A program made the translations under genes and the position numbers. From NCBI GenBank assembly GCA_951812955.1, contig OX638340.1, positions 3,392,001 through 3,456,000 on the forward strand: a stretch of 64,000 nucleotides of DNA, in the 5' to 3' direction. The stretch is from an uncultured Gemmatimonadota bacterium (lineage in GTDB: Bacteria; JAAXHH01). Below, piece after piece: positions 17,711-60,613 of this stretch; positions within the stretch are counted from its first letter, which is position 1; each line of letters starts with the position of its first letter. The notes beneath the pieces were generated by a model. The model saw only the letters and a list, made by a program, of their open reading frames with translations. It was not told the origin of the DNA and did not search any database.

Positions 17711-18772
17711 TCAATCCGACATCAGTCGTTCCGCCTCCTCGATTACACGCCGTGATTCGAGATCCTCCATGCACGCATGGGTACCGTAGCGGCATGCCCG
17801 GTCCCCATGCAGGCTGCAGGGACTGCAGGGAAGGTCGAGCGTTACGGCGGCGTCCGCCGGCCCGAGGGGGGCGAACCCCAGCCGGGGATGTGTGGCGCCG
17901 AACACGCCGACGACCGGCGTACCCACGGCTGTCGCCACGTGCATGGGACCGGAATCGTTGCTGACCAGGAGTCCGCAGCGCCGCACGGCCGCGGGCAGCA
18001 GCGAGAGATCAGTCGTTCCGGTCCAGTCCACGGCCGGGCTCTTCATGGCGCGGGCCACCTCGCCTGCGACGGTACGGTCCTCCTCGCTGCCAAGAAGCAA
18101 CACCCTCATGTCGCGGGATTCCGCCACGTGGTCGGCGACCTCGGCAAACCGCTCCGGAAGCCAGTGTTTCGGACCGTGCGAGGCGCCGGGCGCCACCCCG
18201 AGTACCGGGACCCCGGGGCCGATACCGGCATCCGCCAGCCGTTCCTCCACCCACGCCACCGCCCGGGCGTCGACATTCAGTTCCGGCAGCCGCTTCTCTT
18301 CTGCGCCTTGTGCGCCATCAAGATGGGACGCACCGACTGGATCGAGCTGATCGAGTGTCGCAAGGTAGCGGTCGACCGTATGGGGCACAACCGCGGCACC
18401 GCCGGGCTTTCGAACGATGGCCATCCGGGAGAGCCGGCGCTTATCGTACCGGACGACCCGCCCCGCGTTGCCAGCCAGCGACACCAGCCGGCTGCGCAGG
18501 TTCCCATGCAGGTCGGTCACCAGGTCGTATTTTCTTCGCCGTATGCGGGAGATAAGGCGCGTGAGCCCCTTCGCGGGTTCCAGGCGCTCCACCTCGTTTA
18601 CACCGGGCAACGCGCGAGCCAGGCCGACGTATTCCGAACGCGTAAGAAAGTCGATTTCCGCGTCGGGCCAGATTCTGCGAACCGCTCGCGTAACCGGCGA
18701 GGTCAGCACGATATCGCCCATTGAACTGAACCGGATGACCAGGATGCGGGATGGGGATTCGGACGGGGTCAT
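17711..18772 (-). CDS. Glycosyltransferase family 9 (ADP-heptose:LPS heptosyltransferase-like)
   Basis: RILVIRFSSMGDIVLTSPV N-terminus and a C-terminal VSNDSGPMHVATAVGTP motif. Confidence 0.8.
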   Translation of the reverse strand: MTPSESPSRILVIRFSSMGDIVLTSPVTRAVRRIWPDAEIDFLTRSEYVGLARALPGVNEVERLEPAKGLTRLISRIRRRKYDLVTDLHGNLRSRLVSLAGNAGRVVRYDKRRLSRMAIVRKPGGAAVVPHTVDRYLATLDQLDPVGASHLDGAQGAEEKRLPELNVDARAVAWVEERLADAGIGPGVPVLGVAPGASHGPKHWLPERFAEVADHVAESRDMRVLLLGSEEDRTVAGEVARAMKSPAVDWTGTTDLSLLPAAVRRCGLLVSNDSGPMHVATAVGTPVVGVFGATHPRLGFAPLGPADAAVTLDLPCSPCSLHGDRACRYGTHACMEDLESRRVIEEAERLMSD

Positions 18773-18827: not shown

Positions 18828-19850
18828 TTATCCCAGTTGTTCGCCCACCGCCTCAACGGCCATATCCACGGTAATGCCAGTAAGGTCGCAGAGGGGACCG
18901 CGTTCGCAGGTCGGACACTGCCCGTCGGGCGGCAGCAGGTTTTTGTCCCGTCCGCCCAGGGGCCGCCACCGCTGCGGAGACCTCGCAGGCAACGGGCAGA
19001 AGATGGATACCGTGGGGACGCCCAGCGCGCCCGCCAGGTGCATGGGACCCGTGCTGCTGCACACCAGGAGATCCATTTCACCGACCACCGCGATGAGTTC
19101 GTCCAGCGAAAGCCGCCCCGCAAGGGAAAGGGCGGGTCCGTCCAGCGCGGACATGATCGTCCGGGCGAGATGGTCTTCCTCCGCGCTGCCGGTGACGACG
19201 ATTTTCGCGCCATGGCGGTCCTGCAACCGTTTTGCCAGTGCGCCGTACCGCTCGGCCGTCCAGTTCGGGGCGTTCCCGCCGTTACCGGGATGAATGCCGA
19301 TGACCGGAATCCCTTCCGCCGAGCCCAGTACCGCGCGGGCTTCAAGCCGCTTCCGCTCCTGCACCTCGATCAGGGTCCCCCTACCCGGTTCCCGGGCGTC
19401 GAGGGCACGGGCAAGGTCCAGGCAGTAGTCCGATTCGTGCCGGAGGGGTTCGTAACCGTCGCGGCTGATCGACCGCGTAAAGGTCAGCGCCTGGTATATC
19501 GTCCGGCCCACGCCGACGCGGCGCGGAATGCCTGCCAGGAAGAGCATCCAGGCATGGCGCATGGTCGGCATGAGCATCAGGGCCGTGTCGAATCGATGGG
19601 ACCTGAGAAGCCGCACCTGTTCCAGGAAACCCGCCGGGCCGCGATGACCGTCATCCGGGTCGTCCGCGATCACGGCGTCGAGAACGGGGTTTCTTTCGGC
19701 CACCGCTCGGGTGTAGGGATGTACCATCATGGCGAGGTAGGCTTCCGGCCAGCGATGCCGGAGGGCGTTGATCACCGGCAGAGACAGCACCACGTCTCCG
19801 ACCCGGTCGGGTCTGATCACGAGGATCCGGGGTGAGGTTGCCTGTTCCAT
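18828..19850 (-). CDS. Glycosyltransferase family 9 (heptosyltransferase-like), second paralog
   Basis: RILVIRPDRVGDVVLSLPV...CSSTGPMHLAGALGVPTV. The likely start is the internal Met at 19850; the track ORF runs to 19910. Confidence 0.8.
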   Translation of the reverse strand: MEQATSPRILVIRPDRVGDVVLSLPVINALRHRWPEAYLAMMVHPYTRAVAERNPVLDAVIADDPDDGHRGPAGFLEQVRLLRSHRFDTALMLMPTMRHAWMLFLAGIPRRVGVGRTIYQALTFTRSISRDGYEPLRHESDYCLDLARALDAREPGRGTLIEVQERKRLEARAVLGSAEGIPVIGIHPGNGGNAPNWTAERYGALAKRLQDRHGAKIVVTGSAEEDHLARTIMSALDGPALSLAGRLSLDELIAVVGEMDLLVCSSTGPMHLAGALGVPTVSIFCPLPARSPQRWRPLGGRDKNLLPPDGQCPTCERGPLCDLTGITVDMAVEAVGEQLG

Positions 19851-19887
19851 CGGCGATCCACCGTCGCTCCCGCGGCCTGTCGTCTTT

Positions 19888-21126
19888 CTACGCCTTCCGG
19901 GATTCGGCAAGGCGCAGTTGTCCGCATGCCGCGTCGATGTCCCTGCCGCGTTCCCGCCGCATGGTCAAGTGCAGTCCGCCCGCCCGCAACGCATCCGCAA
20001 AGACCGTCCGGCGGTATTCGTCGGGGGTTTCGTAGGGCAGGCCGCGCACCGGGTTATAGGGAATCAGATTCAGCTTGCATTTGTCCTTTTTCAGCAGCCG
20101 AACAAGGTGTTCCGCGTCCTGGAACCGGTCGTTCACGCCCTTGAGCAGGACATATTCATAGGTGATGATCCGGTCGGTCACCCCGGTGTAGTGGCGACAG
20201 GCCTTCATGAGCTGCTTGAGGGGATAACGCCGGTTGATGGGGACGATCTCGGAACGGGTTCGGTCGTCGGCGGCATGGAGGGACACGGACAACTCGAACT
20301 GGATCTTCTCGTCGGCCAGCTGGTAGATCTTGGGAACGAGGCCGCTGGTGGACAGCGTGATTCTGCGGGCGCCGATGCCGAGTCCCCAGTCGGCGTTGAT
20401 GATCCGTACGGCCCTGAGCACCTGGCTGTAGTTGGCGAGCGGCTCCCCCATGCCCATTACGACGATGTTGTTTATTGGACGGTCATCACCGGCCAGCTTC
20501 CTGACCTGGACGACCTGGTCGACGATTTCGGCCGACGTCATGTTGCGCGCCAGGCCCTCCAGCCCGCTCGCGCAGAAACGGCAGCCGATGGCGCACCCCA
20601 CCTGCGTGGAGATGCAGAGCGTGTTGCGCCGCGAACCGCCGATCAACACCGTCTCCACCTTCTGGCCGTCCCCGAGTTCGAACAGGTACTTCATGGTCGG
20701 ACCGTGGCGCGACTTCGACTGTTGGACGATGGTCAACGGGTTCAGGCAGGCGCGGTCCGAAAGTTCGGCCCGGAATGACCGGGACAGGTTGGTCATTTCC
20801 TCGAATGAGCCCACGGCCTTCTTGTATACCCATGAGGCGATCTGGCCGGCCCGATAGGCCGGTTCGTTCATCTCCGCGACGATCCGCGAGATCTCCGGCA
20901 GCGTCAGGCTCCTCAGATCCGGTTTGCCGCGCGCCGCCGTTCGTGATGTCGGTGCCTGCATGGTCAACTCCGATTTCCTCAGATCCGGTCTGCCGCGCGC
21001 CGCCGTTCGTGATGCCGGTGCCTGCATGATCAACTCCGATTTCCTCAGGTCCGGTTTGCCGCGCGTCGCCGTCCGTGATGCCGGTGACCGCATGGTCAAC
21101 TCCGATCTCCACAAAACCGGTTGCAA
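19888..21126 (-). CDS. rlmN: 23S rRNA (adenine2503-C2)-methyltransferase RlmN (radical SAM). The N-terminal extension is built from three 22-aa tandem repeats.
   Basis: CAIGCRFCASG radical-SAM motif and an RlmN-like core. Alternative in-frame Met starts at 21093, 21027 and 20961 lie inside the 66-nt DNA repeat. Confidence 0.8.
   Translation of the reverse strand: MQPVLWRSELTMRSPASRTATRGKPDLRKSELIMQAPASRTAARGRPDLRKSELTMQAPTSRTAARGKPDLRSLTLPEISRIVAEMNEPAYRAGQIASWVYKKAVGSFEEMTNLSRSFRAELSDRACLNPLTIVQQSKSRHGPTMKYLFELGDGQKVETVLIGGSRRNTLCISTQVGCAIGCRFCASGLEGLARNMTSAEIVDQVVQVRKLAGDDRPINNIVVMGMGEPLANYSQVLRAVRIINADWGLGIGARRITLSTSGLVPKIYQLADEKIQFELSVSLHAADDRTRSEIVPINRRYPLKQLMKACRHYTGVTDRIITYEYVLLKGVNDRFQDAEHLVRLLKKDKCKLNLIPYNPVRGLPYETPDEYRRTVFADALRAGGLHLTMRRERGRDIDAACGQLRLAESRKA
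20911..21108. repeat. Tandem repeat, 66-nt unit in 3 copies (about 90% identical), inside the 5' end of rlmN
   Basis: Units begin at 20911, 20977 and 21043 (cctcagatccggtttgccgcgcgccgccgttcgtgatg...). They encode repeated MxxPxSRTAxRGxPDLRKSEL. Confidence 0.8.
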
Positions 21127-21377
21127 GATACGGCGGATCGAACCCGTTGTCTATGGAAAAGCGGTGAAGGCGCGCCGGTCGCGATCGCACCTTCAGCCCG
21201 TATACTATAGGCATGACGGCCCGGCAACGCCAAGGTTGACATTTTGCTTGTTTTCGACCTCCCGCCCGCGTATATTTTCGTCGGAAGGCAAACTGGCATG
21301 AACACAGGCTTAAGGGGTCTGCGACGTAGCGCGTCGACGCGAGGAACGCAAGGACTCCGTAGCGGAGGATTGAAAAA

Positions 21378-21554
21378 ATGGCTAAGGACAGAAGCTTTGC
21401 GGCCAAGATGGCCAAGGGGACCGACAAGGATCAGGAAGAGCAGATCCAGACCGTGCTGCTGGTCAAACCCGTCAAGTCGGAAGAAGGCCACTACAAGTTC
21501 AAGCGCACGATAACCAAGTTGACCCCCGAGAACAAGAAGGCCCTCGGCGTCTGA
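21378..21554 (+). CDS. DUF4295-family small protein (58 aa)
   Basis: Below the ORF-track size cutoff. A GGAGG RBS lies 8 nt upstream. MAKDRSFAAKMAKGTDKDQ...KPVKSEEGHYKFKRT resembles the small Lys-rich DUF4295 proteins of Bacteroidota. Confidence 0.55.
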   Translation: MAKDRSFAAKMAKGTDKDQEEQIQTVLLVKPVKSEEGHYKFKRTITKLTPENKKALGV

Positions 21555-21605
21555 GACCAGGCCGCCCCCGGAACCGACCTCCCTTCAATACCGCAACGGG
21601 CCGCG

Positions 21606-40676: not shown

Positions 40677-40729
40677 GGATGTGGCACCGAGCCCTGTCGG
40701 CGGTCCGTCTATGGCGCCGGACGGAGCTC

Positions 40730-40862
40730 GAATGTGACCGATCCGCGTCGCCGGCTGGATCCCGAATGTGACCTATCTGCTGCGACGGCCGAACTTGATG
40801 TGACCGATCCGCGGGGCCGGCCGAATTCGAATGTGACCGGTCCGCGGCGATGGCCAGAATTA
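40730..40862. repeat. Tandem repeat, ~33-34 nt unit in 4 degenerate copies, intergenic upstream of hupE
   Basis: GAATGTGACC(G/T)ATCCGCG... cores begin at 40730, 40764, 40796 and 40829. Confidence 0.7.
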
Positions 40863-42103: not shown

Positions 42104-42262
42104 GGAACCGTCGCGGCCACTGACCACAGGACTCGATCACGGTTCCGTCGCGGCCACATGACTCGGTCACGGTTCCGTCGCGGCCACATGACTCGGGCAA
42201 GGTTTCGTCGCGGCCACAGGACTCGGGCAAGGTTCCATCGTGGCCACTCAACTCGGCCAATT
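42104..42262. repeat. Tandem repeat, 30-nt unit in about 5 copies, between convergent sufE and an aldo/keto reductase
   Basis: GGTTCCGTCGCGGCCACATGACTCGGTCAC-like units begin at 42104, 42141, 42171, 42201 and 42231. Confidence 0.8.
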
Positions 42263-45214: not shown

Positions 45215-45242
45215 GGCAGGCGGCGATCCGTACGACTGACCG

Positions 45243-45345
45243 CGCGTCGGCGGCGAATCCGCGTTGATTACCGAGCGCGTTGGCGGCGAATCCGCGTCGA
45301 TTGGTGAGCGCGTCGGCGGCGAATCCGCGTTGATTTCCGAGCGCG
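45243..45345. repeat. Tandem repeat, 33-nt unit in 3 copies, intergenic upstream of the PfkB-SIS gene
   Basis: CGCGTCGGCGGCGAATCCGCGTTGATTACCGAG units at 45243, 45276 and 45309. An AT-rich promoter-like region follows. Confidence 0.8.
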
Positions 45346-50424: not shown

Positions 50425-52458
50425 TCAGGAAGCCGGCCGATTGCGGTAGTAAAGGTAGGATACGGCGGTGAGGATAGCGCTCAGGGCGAGGAAGCCGATG
50501 ATGCGATACAGCGTGTCCAGCATCATGAGGTCGAAGACGAAGGCTTTCACCACGGTGCATCCGAAGTAGACGATGGCCGCGGCGCGAAGTGCCCGGATAT
50601 CCAGCAAACGCCCGAGGAGCATGACGAGGGTCGCGCCAATCAGCCAAACGCCCGAAACGGCCAGCTGGCGCAAGTTTTCCAATTGATTCAGCGAACCATC
50701 CCCAAGTGTGATGATCCGGTACTGGAAATAGCTCAGGATTTCCACCGTACCCCAGACCAGGAGAAGAAACGACCAGGCCACGTGAAAGATCGAAAACAGC
50801 ACGCGGTCACGCCTCGTTTCGTCGCTCCTCGTTTCCTCGCTCCTCGTTTCGTCGCTCCCTGTTTCCTCGCTCCTCGTTTCATCGCGGCCCTGCAGCATGC
50901 CGGCGCAGACAAGCAGCAGTCCTCCCACCACCCAGTAAGCACCGGTGCGCAACGATAGAATCGGCACATAAGCAGAAACGAGGTTGGACACGATCGTCCC
51001 GCCGTGGAGGAATATCGCTACGAACGAAAGGGCAGCCAGTGCCGTCCCGGCGTGACGGACCGGTCGCGTGCCGTAGTGGACACCAAACCAGAACAACGCG
51101 AAGGCTTCGAGGGCCCAGGCAATGATCACGCCGTAACTGAAGAAAAAGCTTATCGGTGCGAGCACCGCAAGCAGCACGGCTACCGTCGCGTGCTCCGCGG
51201 CCGCGGGCCGGTCATCGGTTCGCCGGACAATCCACGCCGTGAGCCCGAAGTACACCAGCGATAGGACCGCGGTCGCGACACCCCCGGAATAGTCCGCAGC
51301 GTGCTGCTCGTACTGAAACTGGACGCCGAAAAAGTCCCACAGGCCTTCCGTGTGCCACGTAAGGCGCATGAGCATCACGTAGTAGCCCAGTACGTTGATC
51401 GCTATTGCCGCCCGCCGCCACCACCTGTTCCCCGGGTCGCCCGTGACCGAGCGCAAGAGGTTCGTCCCCGCAAACAGCATCCACCAAAGCGTCAAAAAGG
51501 CCAGGGCGGTTCCGAGACCTTCGGGCAGGTCCGCCCGGAACGACCAGGTCAGGTAGATTCCGTAAGTGGCCGCGACAGCCAGCAGTTCGAGCAGCCGCCA
51601 TCTGCGCCGCCTCACCAGGATGGCGATCAGGCCGGCGTCGAGCAGCGTAAGGTATACGAAGAGACCGAGGGTGTTCAGTTCGGCCGTGACGAGGAGGAGG
51701 GGGGTCAGGAATCCGCCGGCCCATCCCAGCAGGGCGATGGCCCGCGCGTCGTAGTACAGGGAAATCAGCAGGGCGGCGGCCGTTACCAGGGTCATGAGGA
51801 AAAAGGCGACGGGCTGCGGCACAAGATGGTAGAAGTCGAAAGCTGCGTAGATCGACAGGTATAGAATCGCCACGCCCGCGCCGGTCAGCCCATGGGAGAA
51901 AACGGACATTTGACGCCGATGGAATCGGTAGCCACCGGCGATCAGCAACATGCCGGCCGCTCCGCCCAGGATCACGCGCGCGGTTTCATTCAACCAGTCG
52001 TTGTCGAAAGCATATTTCAGGAAGAATCCCGCGGCGAGAATGAGCGCCAGGGCGCCCGCACGGTTCAACAGCTTGCCGCCGAAAAGAATCTCCCACTCTT
52101 CTCGGGTGCGTGGCCGCAGCATGTGGGCAACCCGGCCGGGCGTTCGATGCGGTACGGGTTCACTCGCCAGTGCCCCTCCCGCCAGTGCCCCTCCCGCCAG
52201 TGCCCCTCCCGCTAGTGCCCCTCCCGCCGCCGGAGATTCCTCCGTTGTTTCTTCTATCGTTTCTTTTGCCGTTTCCTTCGTGGTCTCTTCCGTTTCTTCT
52301 GTCGTCTCCTCAACTCCCCGTCCGGCTGGCGCCGTACCGGTTGTCCCGGTCTTCCGTCTTATGACCTCCTCGAGTTTCCGGACTCGTCCCGATAGAGACA
52401 GGTACGTCCCGACGAGGAAAAGGATTAGCAAGATGTTGAAAACGATCAGTAGTTCCAT
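50425..52458 (-). CDS. DUF2339-domain polytopic membrane protein
   Basis: 677 aa with many TM helices. An N-terminal coiled/low-complexity region carries in-frame 15-nt tandem repeats (GGALA in 4 copies, EETTE-like repeats). Confidence 0.65.
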   Translation of the reverse strand: MELLIVFNILLILFLVGTYLSLSGRVRKLEEVIRRKTGTTGTAPAGRGVEETTEETEETTKETAKETIEETTEESPAAGGALAGGALAGGALAGGALASEPVPHRTPGRVAHMLRPRTREEWEILFGGKLLNRAGALALILAAGFFLKYAFDNDWLNETARVILGGAAGMLLIAGGYRFHRRQMSVFSHGLTGAGVAILYLSIYAAFDFYHLVPQPVAFFLMTLVTAAALLISLYYDARAIALLGWAGGFLTPLLLVTAELNTLGLFVYLTLLDAGLIAILVRRRRWRLLELLAVAATYGIYLTWSFRADLPEGLGTALAFLTLWWMLFAGTNLLRSVTGDPGNRWWRRAAIAINVLGYYVMLMRLTWHTEGLWDFFGVQFQYEQHAADYSGGVATAVLSLVYFGLTAWIVRRTDDRPAAAEHATVAVLLAVLAPISFFFSYGVIIAWALEAFALFWFGVHYGTRPVRHAGTALAALSFVAIFLHGGTIVSNLVSAYVPILSLRTGAYWVVGGLLLVCAGMLQGRDETRSEETGSDETRSEETRSDETRRDRVLFSIFHVAWSFLLLVWGTVEILSYFQYRIITLGDGSLNQLENLRQLAVSGVWLIGATLVMLLGRLLDIRALRAAAIVYFGCTVVKAFVFDLMMLDTLYRIIGFLALSAILTAVSYLYYRNRPAS

Positions 52459-53776: not shown

Positions 53777-53789
53777 CCGGTCACGGTCC

Positions 53790-53868
53790 CGTGACCACGC
53801 TCAGACCGACGAGACCCGCGACCACGCTCAGACCGACGAGGCCCGTGACCACGCTCAGCAGGGCGAAG
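53790..53868. repeat. Tandem repeat, 27-nt unit in 3 copies, intergenic
   Basis: CGTGACCACGCTCAGACCGACGAGACC-like units at 53790, 53817 and 53844. Confidence 0.75.
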
Positions 53869-56940: not shown

Positions 56941-57056
56941 TGAACGCATCGGCGCCCGCCGGCAGGGGTGCGCGTCTCTGATCGCATCGGCGCCCGCTGG
57001 CAGGTGCGCGTCTATGAACGCATCGGTGCTCGCCGGCAGGGGTGCACGTCTGCGAA
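56941..57056. repeat. Tandem repeat, ~37-nt unit in 3 copies, intergenic upstream of the NHL-repeat gene
   Basis: GAACGCATCGGCGCCCGCCGGCAGGGGTGCGCGTCT-like units at 56941, 56979 and 57015. Confidence 0.75.
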
Positions 57057-57098: not shown

Positions 57099-57965
57099 AT
57101 GAGTTTCGGTAACGGGGCCTACAGGTACGAGGTGCAGGAAAACTGGTGGAAGCTTCCTGAAGGGTGGTCCTTCGGATGGATAACCGGAGTCGCCTGCGAT
57201 TCAAAGGACCAGGTGTACGTCTATTCCCGAAGCGAGCATCCCCTGGTGGTCTTCGACCGCGACGGAACGTTTGTCAAGACCATCGGCGACGGCATACTGA
57301 AGGACGCTCATGGTATATACATCGACGGAGAGGACAACATCTTCCTGGTCGACTGGCTGGACCACTGCGTCCGCAAGTTCGACGCGGACGGGAACCAGGT
57401 CCTGGTGATTGGCACGCCCGGTGTTCCGAGCGACAACGACGGTGATCCTTTCCGCAAGCCGACGGAAGCGGTCGTCGCGCCGAACGGAGATATCTACGTG
57501 TCCGACGGGTACGACAACGCCCGGGTACACCGGTACGACGCCGAAGGGAACCACATCCACTCCTGGGGCAGCTGGGGTGACGGCCCCTCCCAGTTCGCGC
57601 TGAGCCACTGCGTCCGCATTGACCGGCATGACCGGCTGTGGGTGTGTGATCGTGAAAACCAGCGCATCCAGCTATTCGACCTGGAAGGCAAGTTTATCGA
57701 GGAGCGACACGTTCCTGGCAAACCCGACACCGTCTACTTTGATCCGGTAGAAGATATAGCGTACGTGGCCGAGCTGGAACAACAGGTGGGTATCTACACC
57801 CTGGACGGCGACCTGGTCAGCAGCTGGGGCGGCGGTAAGCGGAGCGATCGGCCGGGCGAATTCGCCGGCTGTCCCCACGGCATCTGGATGGACTCCCACG
57901 GCGACCTCTATGTCGGCGAAGTTCAGGCCGACGCCAGGCTGCAGAAGTTCGTGAGATCGAGGTAA
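57099..57965 (+). CDS. NHL-repeat beta-propeller protein
   Basis: Repeated ...G.F..P.G.A.D..G..YV.D..N.R...D motifs over 288 aa. Confidence 0.75.
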   Translation: MSFGNGAYRYEVQENWWKLPEGWSFGWITGVACDSKDQVYVYSRSEHPLVVFDRDGTFVKTIGDGILKDAHGIYIDGEDNIFLVDWLDHCVRKFDADGNQVLVIGTPGVPSDNDGDPFRKPTEAVVAPNGDIYVSDGYDNARVHRYDAEGNHIHSWGSWGDGPSQFALSHCVRIDRHDRLWVCDRENQRIQLFDLEGKFIEERHVPGKPDTVYFDPVEDIAYVAELEQQVGIYTLDGDLVSSWGGGKRSDRPGEFAGCPHGIWMDSHGDLYVGEVQADARLQKFVRSR

Positions 57966-58070
57966 TTAGGCAATCGAGGACACTCGGCGACCGAGGTAAT
58001 CCGGCAATCGAGGACACTCGGCGATCGAGGTAATTCGGCAATCGAGGACACTCGGCGACCGAAGTAATAC
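57955..58070. repeat. Tandem repeat, 33-nt unit in about 3.3 copies, beginning at the NHL gene stop codon
   Basis: CGAGGTAAT(T/C)(A/C)GGCAATCGAGGACACTCGGCGAC units at about 57960, 57993 and 58026. Confidence 0.8.
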
Positions 58071-58210: not shown

Positions 58211-60613
58211 ATGACCGATACTGACGAACGACATCGTGATACCCGCACGGACCGAGACCGGCTCGTGAGGCTGAGCCAGGCCAGTCTGCGCATAAGCGAA
58301 AGCCTGGATGTCGATACCGTGCTGCACGAGGTCGTGGAGAGCGCGTGCGAATTAACGGGTGCCGCAGCCGGGGGGATCGTCGCGGTGGATCACACAGGAA
58401 GTGTAAAGGATTTCGTTACGTATGGGGTGCGTCCCGAGGAGTACCAGAAGTGTCTTGACCTGCCGATCGGACCGAGATTGTGGGAAACCCTTCGCCGGTT
58501 GACGCAACCGCTAAGAATCAACGACCTTTCGTCCCATCTCGTATCGCAGGGTTTTCCTGACGATCCATGGCTGGCCCGGAGCTTTCTGGGTGTGCCTGTT
58601 CGGCATCAGGGCGATTTCATCGGATTCTTCTGTCTTACCGACAAGAGAGCTGGTGAGACCTTCACTGACGAAGACGAGGGGATCCTGGTCCTGTTCGCTT
58701 CTCAGGCCGCCGCCGCGATTGTCAATGCCCGCAGGCATGGCGAAATGCAGCGGGCAAGGGCCGACCTCGAAGTTTTGATCGACACCTCTCCCGTGGGTGT
58801 AGTGGTATTCGATGCCAGAACCGGAAAAATAACATCGTATAACCGGGAGACGCAACGCATTGTGGAGGAGCTCCTGGATCCTGGCCAGCCGACCGAAGAA
58901 CTAATGGACATACTCAGTGTGCAGCGCGCCGATGGACGTGAGATCGTGCTGGAGGACTCCGATCCGGCCGAGGTGTTCATGGACGCCACGGCGATCCGGG
59001 CCGAGGAGATTGTCCTCGTCGTTCCGGACGGACGAAAAATATCCACGCTGGTCAACGCCACCCCGATCTGCACCGAAAAGGGCGAGGTGGAGACGGTGGT
59101 CGTCACCTTGCAGGACATGACGTCCCGGGAGGACCTCGAGCGCATGCGTACCCAGTTCCTGGGCATGGTGAGTCACGAACTGAGAGCGCCGCTTACGTCG
59201 ATCAAGGGTTGCGCGGCTACTGCGTTGGGGACCCCGTCGATACTGGATCCGGCCGAGGTCCGGCAGTTTTTCCGCATCATCGATGAACAGGCGGATAACA
59301 TGCGTGAACTGATCGGCGACCTGCTGGATGCGGTCCACATCGATACAGGCACACTGTCTGTAACCCCGGAACCTGTGGAACTGGCTATCATGCTGGACCA
59401 GGCCCGTAACATGTACTTGAGCAGCGGAAGGAGAAGTCCGGTCAGTGTTGATCTGCCGGCTGATCTGCCGAAGGTGAAGGCGGACCGGCAGCGCGTCATA
59501 CAGGTGCTGGTGAATCTCCTATCCAATGCCTCCCGGCACGCGCCCGAGTCGTCTACGATACGGGTACAGGTGGTGCAGGAAGACTACCATGTAGCAATTT
59601 CAGTAATCGACGAGGGCCGGGGGATACCAGAGGATCGCCTGCCCCACCTGTTCCAGAAATTCGTTCAAAGTGGCCGGGAGGACCGCGGCCGCGGCGTAGG
59701 GGAGGGCCTCGGGCTGGCGATATGCAAGGGTCTGGTAGAAGCGCATGGTGGCCGAATCTGGGCTGAAAGCGAAGCCGACGGACTCGGCACGCGATTCACG
59801 TTTACTTTACCCGTGGTTGAAGTGGCCAAAGCAGAATTCGAAGTGACTTCAACAGGGCCCGAAGTGACTTCAACAGGGTCCGAAGTGACTTCAGCACGGG
59901 AGAAAGAGGGCAAGGATCGGAGAGTCCGGCATACGCCTTGCATACTCGCGGTGGATGACGATCCGATGGCTCTGGGACAGATCCGGGAGATCCTCAAGGG
60001 CGCGGGATTCACGCCACTTATCACGGGAGATCCCAAAGAGGTGCCGGACCTGATAGAAACCCGTCAGCCCGACCTGGTACTGCTGGATCTGCTGCTGCCG
60101 AAGAGCGATGGGATCGAACTGATGCAAAGCGAGCCTGCCTTGGCTGATCAGCCGGTCATCTTCCTGTCGGCGTACGGCCGGGACGAGACCATAGTCAAGG
60201 CCCTGGAAGTGGGTGCGGTCGACTACATAGTCAAGCCGTTCTCACCGTCGGAACTCGTGGCCAGGATACAGTCGGCACTTCGTAAGCATGACAGCGCGCC
60301 AGAGCCATTTCAGTCCGGCAGTCTCTATATCAACTATGAAGAACGGAATGCCGTTCTGGATGGCCGGCCACTGAAGCTGACCGCCACCGAGTACGGTCTG
60401 CTCAGGTTGCTTTCAGTCAACGCGGGTCGGGTGGTCACCCATGACAAGCTGCTACGTAGTGTGTGGCGGTCGAGTAAACCTGGTGACGCCCGGGTGGTGC
60501 ACGCGTTCGTGAAGAAACTCCGCCAGAAGCTGGGCGATGAAAGCAGCAATCCTACCTACATTTTCACCGAACACCGGGTTGGCTACCGAATGGCACGACC
60601 GGATGATGCATAA
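58211..60613 (+). CDS. Hybrid signalling protein: GAF, PAS, HisKA/HATPase_c, receiver, and OmpR-type winged-helix DNA-binding domain
   Basis: H-box SHELRAPLTSI, an ATP lid (...GLGLAICKGLVEAHGG), receiver Asp (VLLDLLLP...) and a C-terminal trans_reg_C (YIFTEHRVGYRM). An in-frame 21-nt x3 repeat (EVTSTGP) lies between the kinase and receiver. Confidence 0.85.
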   Translation: MTDTDERHRDTRTDRDRLVRLSQASLRISESLDVDTVLHEVVESACELTGAAAGGIVAVDHTGSVKDFVTYGVRPEEYQKCLDLPIGPRLWETLRRLTQPLRINDLSSHLVSQGFPDDPWLARSFLGVPVRHQGDFIGFFCLTDKRAGETFTDEDEGILVLFASQAAAAIVNARRHGEMQRARADLEVLIDTSPVGVVVFDARTGKITSYNRETQRIVEELLDPGQPTEELMDILSVQRADGREIVLEDSDPAEVFMDATAIRAEEIVLVVPDGRKISTLVNATPICTEKGEVETVVVTLQDMTSREDLERMRTQFLGMVSHELRAPLTSIKGCAATALGTPSILDPAEVRQFFRIIDEQADNMRELIGDLLDAVHIDTGTLSVTPEPVELAIMLDQARNMYLSSGRRSPVSVDLPADLPKVKADRQRVIQVLVNLLSNASRHAPESSTIRVQVVQEDYHVAISVIDEGRGIPEDRLPHLFQKFVQSGREDRGRGVGEGLGLAICKGLVEAHGGRIWAESEADGLGTRFTFTLPVVEVAKAEFEVTSTGPEVTSTGSEVTSAREKEGKDRRVRHTPCILAVDDDPMALGQIREILKGAGFTPLITGDPKEVPDLIETRQPDLVLLDLLLPKSDGIELMQSEPALADQPVIFLSAYGRDETIVKALEVGAVDYIVKPFSPSELVARIQSALRKHDSAPEPFQSGSLYINYEERNAVLDGRPLKLTATEYGLLRLLSVNAGRVVTHDKLLRSVWRSSKPGDARVVHAFVKKLRQKLGDESSNPTYIFTEHRVGYRMARPDDA

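Follow-up and report, generated by a model that had tools for sequence, protein, structure and literature searches.

The closest described analogues of the array analysed here are the MIRU-VNTR loci of Mycobacterium tuberculosis, in which units of 40–100 bp lie at gene starts and carry open reading frames (ORFs) that are coupled to the downstream start codon (PMC12548453). The tandem repeat at the 5' end of rlmN in the window (the whole 64-kb stretch of DNA that was analysed) is similar in unit size, in its site at a gene start, in an ORF that is in phase or coupled with the downstream start, in a copy number that is polymorphic among strains, and in a possible effect on expression. However, MIRUs are interspersed over many loci and are thought to be mobile, whereas the rlmN unit consists of the start region of the gene itself and, within the 64-kb window, occurs at this locus only, for which reason an interspersed, MIRU-like family was rejected. 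A second type of related system is provided by nested in-frame starts, of which IF2 alpha and beta are a natural example: alternative starts in one frame give rise to isoforms. When two to four Shine-Dalgarno (SD)/AUG sites were placed in tandem and in frame on an mRNA in E. coli, all of them were used, each accounting for 11–85% of the product (Drechsel & Bock, PMC3045613). As in IF2 and these multi-SD constructs, several SD-AUG sites share one frame and one mRNA in the rlmN array; however, the internal starts of those systems are conserved and selected, or engineered, whereas the extra rlmN starts stem from duplication and are decaying in relatives.

Two further classes invite comparison. 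With coding minisatellites in disordered protein tails, the array shares a period that is a multiple of three, a disordered basic peptide, and a length that varies between strains; unlike plain coding minisatellites, its unit spans the boundary between 5'UTR and coding sequence (CDS), such that each copy brings its own ribosome-binding site and start codon. With simple-sequence contingency loci, it shares a hypermutable repeat at the 5' end of a gene. The units of contingency loci, however, measure 1–7 nt, whereas the rlmN unit of 66 nt equals 22 codons; since 66 is a multiple of three and the -10 box lies upstream of the whole array, gain or loss of copies leaves both the reading frame and the promoter spacing as they were. 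A phase-variable contingency locus was therefore rejected: the frame breaks seen in relatives are point indels inside a unit. A literature search returned no direct precedent for the tandem duplication of a bacterial start region, nor for repeat richness in sponge Latescibacterota.

The rlmN gene occupies an open frame on the minus strand (19888..21126) that comprises 412 aa from a TTG and contains in-frame ATGs at 21093, 21027, and 20961. The features of the locus are as follows:

21125..21153, minus strand: predicted sigma-70-like promoter of rlmN, from a promoter scan.
21045..21110, minus strand: repeat unit 1 (outer), with GGAG at 21103-21100 and ATG at 21093-21091; encodes RSPASRTATRGKPDLRKSELI.
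20979..21044, minus strand: repeat unit 2 (middle, the strain-specific extra copy), with GGAG at 21037-21034 and ATG at 21027-21025.
20913..20978, minus strand: repeat unit 3 (inner, the native translation start region), with GGAG at 20971-20968 and ATG at 20961-20959.
20909..20912, minus strand: GGAG directly 3' of the array (codons AGG AGC), read from the sequence.
19888..20961, minus strand: rlmN CDS as read from the conserved ATG; its 357 aa include the RlmN_N and radical SAM domains (Pfam).
Start at 21027, minus strand: nested 379-aa form of rlmN, from an in-frame ATG.
19888..21093, minus strand: longest plausible rlmN frame, 401 aa, public record P0121.
18828..19910, minus strand: glycosyltransferase family 9 (GT9) gene (Pfam), overlapping or abutting the rlmN stop codon.
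17711..18772, minus strand: second GT9 gene (Pfam) of the same co-directional cluster, syntenic in L001–L003.

In the 412-aa frame, the accessory domain RlmN_N (PF21016, residues 70-127, E 1.9e-14) is followed by the radical SAM core (PF04055, residues 172-337, E 2.7e-17), as in members of the RlmN family. The translation contains the CxxxCxxC motif (CAIGCRFC), the upstream cysteine of NTLCISTQ, and the C-terminal cysteine of DIDAACGQL; the putative iron-sulfur and catalytic cysteines are invariant columns in alignment A2, which likewise points to RlmN. Homologs named RlmN reach 91% identity (P0006), and P0122, which falls into the same 90% cluster, is the named 357-aa RlmN of a locus that is 99% identical (L004). 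Close homologs (95-97% identity) are annotated with 357-359 aa, and public calls for sibling strains are 357, 359, or 379 aa. The first GT9 gene is probably co-transcribed with rlmN, and the rlmN-GT9 order is the same in L001-L003; the gene order rlmN-GT9-GT9 given in the first-pass annotation is correct according to Pfam and synteny. A plus-strand ORF of 125 aa (20924..21301), which spans repeat and promoter, was discarded for lack of supporting evidence. Divergent from rlmN lies an ORF of 58 aa (MAKDRSFAAKMAKGTDKDQEEQ..., 21378-21554, plus strand) with a GGAGGA ribosome-binding site, which has no Pfam match; wherever genes have been called in a close relative, the ORF is present at the same place and equally long.

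Tandem Repeats Finder (TRF) places the array at 20910-21122, with a period of 66, 3.2 copies, 89% matches, and 0% indels; its score of 342 is the highest among the arrays in the 64-kb window. The 66-nt triplication described by the first-pass annotation is thereby borne out. When up to three mismatches are allowed, a 37-nt core of the unit has three matches in the 64-kb window, all at this locus, and 0 matches in 100 dinucleotide-preserving shuffles. On the coding strand, the unit reads GGAGATC-GGAG-TTGACC-ATG followed by 16 codons (M-Q/R-A/S-P-A/T-S-R-T-A-A/T-R-G-K/R-P-D-L) and ends in ...CTGA. Every unit is thus a copy of the rlmN translation start region: an SD-like GGAG, a 6-nt spacer, an ATG, and 16 codons. 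Units 2 and 3 differ at 3/66 positions, units 1 and 3 at 7/66, and all pairs at 3-8. Unit 3 encodes the native N-terminal tail, MQAPTSRTAARGKPDL, which alters the count of the proposed 22-aa x3 extension: the repeat is present, but because its third unit is native, the true extension amounts to 2 x 22 = 44 aa. The GGAG at 20909-20912 matches the GGAG that opens each unit and might represent the microhomology at the boundary of the duplication, which would then have its end point here. To judge from the predicted transcript start, the duplicated unit would comprise the whole 5'UTR and the unstructured N-terminal tail ahead of the RlmN_N domain.

The array begins directly 3' of a conserved promoter-like site. 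The promoter scan, which observed 2 sites compared to 0.2 expected in shuffles, identified a -35 hexamer TAGACA (21153-21148), a 17-nt spacer, and a -10 hexamer TATCTT (21130-21125), and the block ...TTTTC[CA]ATAGACA...17 nt...TATCTTG is kept in all relatives, including those with a single copy. From the match to the consensus, transcription is predicted to start near 21118, at the very beginning of the array; no promoter elements were found by the scan within the repeat units. The nested set of start codons proposed by the first-pass annotation can be retained with regard to the ATGs at 21093, 21027, and 20961, all of which are in frame, but not with regard to the TTG at 21126: it overlaps the -10 hexamer and is therefore an unlikely start, so that the largest plausible product is the 401-aa protein from ATG 21093.

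The closest genomes are metagenome-assembled genomes (MAGs) labelled Gemmatimonadetes or Candidatus Latescibacterota, and some isolate names, such as APA_bin_41, suggest a derivation from sponges or corals. The order of the locus in relatives is PHO4, Rce1-like, the opposite-strand 58-aa ORF, rlmN, GT9, and GT9. Comparing copy number among relatives, as had been proposed at the outset, revealed one, two, or three copies and a nested 22-nt expansion. Copy number was assigned by the length of the leader, taken as the distance between the -10 box and the codons for the conserved PEISRIV:

One copy, leader of 95-98 nt: L008, L010, L014, L022 (86-89% protein identity).
Two copies, leader of 161-164 nt: L001, L002, L003, L004=L085, L005=L093=L095, L086, L088=L089, L092.
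At least two copies: L087, the contig of which ends within the array.
Three copies, leader of 229 nt: the window and L084.
Two units with a nested 21-22-nt expansion (about 7 copies) in the outer unit, leader of 293 nt: L090=L091.

L084 is an independent metagenome contig of a different strain with 98.3% CDS identity. At least two copies are present in all 15 loci fetched from the clade of about 98% identity and also in the sister species L003 (91% CDS identity, 24% divergence at 4-fold sites). The window diverges from the main clade by about 2% within the CDS of rlmN, by about 5% if 4-fold sites are considered, and by 4-7% in the intergenic spacer. The units, which exceed the 10 bp that delimit minisatellites, are arranged head-to-tail and differ in copy number among related strains, as is characteristic of a VNTR. 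In L090 and L091 (~1305-1500), two independent assemblies, the upstream unit contains the nested repeat GGACGGCGGCRCGMGGCAAWCC in about 7 copies of 21-22 nt, and a 62-aa upstream ORF has been called that ends 8 nt ahead of the rlmN ATG. Short-read assemblies tend to break in the array, in that a contig starts or ends there (L087) or an N-gap lies at the inner start (L094), so that copy numbers from short-read MAGs need care at this locus.

Which of the start codons is under selection can be read from the decay of the units. The ATG located 66 nt ahead of the PEISRIV anchor (20961 in the window) is found in every genome, be it with one, two, or three copies, and is the only ATG of the array for which this holds; inner units show no indel and no lost ATG in any genome compared. 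In upstream units, by contrast, three independent frame-breaking indel events have occurred:

64 nt: upstream unit of L001.
67 nt: upstream unit of L005, L088, L089, L093, and L095.
+130 nt: upstream unit of L090 and L091.

Moreover, the upstream start codon has changed to ACG (L004, L085, L084_1), ATA (L003), or TTG (L092). Among strains, outer units differ at 3-12/66 positions and inner units at 0-7/66, with about 5% divergence from the window at 4-fold sites; by this comparison, the rate of change in upstream units is no lower than at neutral sites, and these units carry no signal of purifying selection. Most differences that separate the units of the window from each other are non-synonymous (3/3 for units 2 vs 3, 5/7 for units 1 vs 3). 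Indels, lost ATGs, divergence, and non-synonymous changes together imply that the upstream copies are free of coding constraint and that the conserved protein is the one of 357 aa. Comparison of the strains thus shows selection to act on the innermost ATG (20961) as the start. The notion of the extension as a conserved feature of RlmN is contradicted by these observations: upstream copies are out of frame or lack the ATG in relatives, and the innermost ATG alone is universal. An identical extension in distant RlmN orthologs was looked for and is absent, and the N-termini of the longer distant homologs P0051, P0095, P0108, and P0033 are unrelated to it.

In the window, all three SD-ATG sites are intact and in frame. 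Given the precedent of the E. coli reporters, a mixture of isoforms may be expected: the strain probably yields nested RlmN proteins of 401, 379, and 357 aa, which would differ only by a basic, disordered N-terminal tail. Base-pair probabilities leave the SD unpaired with a probability of 0.39-0.49 at all three starts and indicate no clear preference. An AlphaFold2 model of the 401-aa form (mean pLDDT 82.9, alignment of 30 sequences) has pLDDT values below 50 and no secondary structure for residues 1-54, with the fold beginning around residue 58; the N-terminal extension is accordingly predicted by the model to be disordered. The inner start itself is not entirely static. The GGAG at position -10 of the inner ATG is missing in five alleles (L002, L086, L087, L088/L089, L090/L091), all of which keep the junction GGAG at -17, 7 nt ahead of an in-frame TTG, and where the junction reads CGAG instead (L001, L005, L003), the GGAG at -10 is retained in each case. 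Among the alleles compared, none lacks both. As a GGAG at -10, at -17, or at both is thus found throughout, the start region is under some selection, which could interact with the repeat.

A distance matrix of all units, together with a neighbour-joining tree, served to reconstruct their history. In the window, the outer unit (WIN_1) groups with L084_1 and L004_1, near L005_1 and L002_1, and is orthologous to the outer unit of two-copy relatives; the first duplication is thus older than the radiation of the strains. WIN_2 and WIN_3 are sisters that differ at three positions and have in common the derived bases GGAAATC, CACGAACGG and GGATCTGA, which indicates that the third copy came from the inner unit in the lineage of this strain. 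L084_2 is a chimera of L084_1 and L084_3, i.e., a mosaic, and the third copy of L084 therefore arose separately. Single-copy relatives possess the same promoter, 5'UTR, and ATG, which identifies one copy as the ancestral state. Units 2 and 3 differ by 4.5%, about as much as neutral divergence between strains, and hence even the step from two to three copies is not very recent. The first-pass annotation had favoured recent slippage: while an origin by slippage or unequal recombination fits the variable copy number, the first duplication is older and shared by the clade and its sister species, and the step from two to three copies, independent in L084, is the only one that is strain-specific.

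The reading that best accommodates these data, to which we assign a probability of about 75%, is that the locus is a VNTR or minisatellite which was built from rlmN's own translation start region and has no dedicated function. In a single-copy ancestor, a tandem duplication of 66 bp would have taken place between two short, GGAG-containing microhomologies. The duplicated stretch would have extended from just past the transcription start, through 5'UTR, GGAG, 6-nt spacer, and ATG, to codon 16; as 66 is a multiple of three, the duplicate copy was kept in frame. As the comparison of units across strains shows, unequal recombination, slippage, and gene conversion between units then changed the copy number further, from two to three in this strain and independently in L084, and by a nested 22-nt expansion in another strain. 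The upstream copies form an unconstrained 5' leader that decays by frameshifts and by loss of start codon or SD. Any effect on the dosage of RlmN would be a by-product, the array most likely being without dedicated function.

This minisatellite reading is in line with the repeat content of the lineage. At a TRF score of at least 50, the window contains 26 arrays, i.e., 4.1 per 10 kb, and the clade loci contain 3.1 per 10 kb; for 60 unrelated rlmN loci, mostly from Verrucomicrobia, the value at the same threshold is 1.0 per 10 kb. A lineage that makes minisatellites everywhere requires no special explanation for the one at rlmN. Minisatellites at 36900-62200 of the window have periods of 15-38 nt and lie mostly in spacers between ordinary metabolic genes (e.g., 40713-40849, 42124-42260, 45242-45345, 53788-53858, 56941-57051, 57956-58068); by eye, the consensus units of the other arrays look unrelated to each other and to the 66-nt unit. 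Some arrays are located within genes: a gene for a DUF2339 membrane protein (ORF 50425..52458, minus strand) contains two in-frame 15/30-nt arrays, one near its 5' end (52165-52228, 4.3 copies, 95% match) and one further in (50812-50885, 4.9 copies). Another array, of 34 nt x 3.3 (57956-58068), lies ahead of a gene for a hybrid sensor kinase/response regulator (58211..60613; GAF-PAS-HisKA-HATPase-REC-Trans_reg_C), which itself holds an in-frame array of 21 nt x 2.6 (59839-59893, 97% match).

Repeats also occur around rlmN in more distant relatives. In a sister clade, an independent in-frame 15-nt array encodes (GKPEG)n at the same rlmN codons, just ahead of KPDLRGL (proteins P0013 and P0017), with 9.2 copies and 96% match in L015 (~2375-2512), 4.7 copies in L016 (~2440-2509), and 2.7 copies in L017. 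These arrays exemplify a plain coding minisatellite at the same site, and their independent expansion indicates that the RlmN tail is slippage-prone, tolerant of changes in length, and a recurrent hot spot of expansion in this lineage. Relatives with a single-copy start carry other spacer repeats upstream of rlmN (L016, L006, L013, L017): in L016 (~2209-2320), an array of 16 nt x 7 is separated by about 15 nt from the -35 hexamer downstream of it, while L006 (1-97) has 21 nt x 4.6 at a greater distance from rlmN.

An unlikely alternative, which the first-pass annotation had raised and which conservation does not support, is that the array acts as a regulatory leader of variable copy number, whose extra SD-ATG units would tune the output of RlmN and the downstream GT9 proteins. 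Units in frame would serve as standby or additional initiation sites and units out of frame as interfering or coupled upstream ORFs, so that a change in copy number would create heritable expression variants. Close strains do differ in copy number and in the frame of their units, and alleles with out-of-frame units form upstream ORFs of 43-62 codons, which overlap with the start of rlmN or, as in L090, stop 8 nt ahead of it. A precedent exists in M. tuberculosis, where the length of the MIRU-VNTR upstream of fpg1 correlates with expression (PMC2734929). Moreover, the second copy has never been lost, as 0/15 close loci are back to one copy: tandem repeats of 66 bp should delete easily, and their retention in two or more copies may be a hint that a longer leader is beneficial. 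The persistence of copies, the GGAG kept at the inner start, and the upstream ORFs amount to hints, not to evidence. On the other hand, upstream units change at least as fast as neutral sites, and SD, ATG, or frame are lost in about half of the alleles, which is roughly what neutral decay predicts; in addition, minisatellites are found everywhere in this lineage, and neither a stable or conserved RNA structure nor an Rfam family was detected for the leader. The 230-nt leader folds with -83.9 kcal/mol compared to -83.9 +/- 4.5 in shuffles (z = 0.01), single units reach z values of -0.12 to 1.16, no better than shuffles, and a search of 20600-21600 on both strands returned no Rfam match at E <= 1. 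A riboswitch or other structured RNA leader was rejected on these grounds, as was a leader-peptide attenuator of the erm/cat type, which would require a conserved upstream ORF and alternative hairpins that sequester the downstream SD: the upstream ORF is absent or different in many relatives, and the fold of the leader does not exceed that of shuffles.

It is quite improbable that the 22-aa repeats constitute a functional extension of the protein, i.e., a basic, flexible tail that aids the binding of RlmN to rRNA or tRNA and whose repeat number is selected. The extension has a net charge of about +3 per unit, none of the three units is closed or out of frame in the window, public annotation gives the 401-aa form, and in-frame 379-aa alleles exist in L002, L086, and L087; the sister clade has independently expanded its Lys-rich GKPEG repeat at the same position to up to 9 copies (L015). 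However, the upstream unit cannot be translated in frame in most close relatives, differences between units are mostly non-synonymous, the tail is predicted to be disordered, and it is without counterpart in single-copy and distant orthologs.

Similarly doubtful is the idea that the array has been selected as a hypermutable tuning knob, by which copy number and frame of the leader would produce heritable variants in RlmN dosage or isoforms. If true, this would diversify A2503 and tRNA methylation, translational fidelity, and responses to stress and antibiotics within a symbiont population. The modification m2A2503 contributes to the sensing of nascent peptides by the ribosome, and a still more speculative version is an autoregulatory loop, in which methylated ribosomes would differ from unmethylated ones in how they read the leader peptide. 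The only hints for either are the presence of at least two copies in 15/15 close loci and the turnover of the SD at the inner start. Finally, a mis-expanded repeat is hardly credible as the source of the triplication. Short-read assemblies of relatives do break here (contig end in L087, N-gap in L094), but the units are non-identical and can be told apart by 3-8 differences, P0121 lies on a 3.81-Mb contig, three units are likewise present in the independent contig of a different strain, L084, and closed multi-megabase contigs contain two.

The array thus looks like an ordinary, slippage-prone minisatellite, with no new mechanism indicated. For annotation, this means that the public 401-aa RlmN is most likely 44 residues longer than the conserved protein, and that gene callers disagree between strains (357, 359, 379, or 401 aa). 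The locus breaks short-read assemblies, and at the same time offers a ready marker for strain typing in this sponge-associated lineage. The natural series of one, two, and three copies in various states of decay illustrates the fate of a duplicated whole translation start region, in which turnover affects the surplus starts and SD motifs but not the enzyme.
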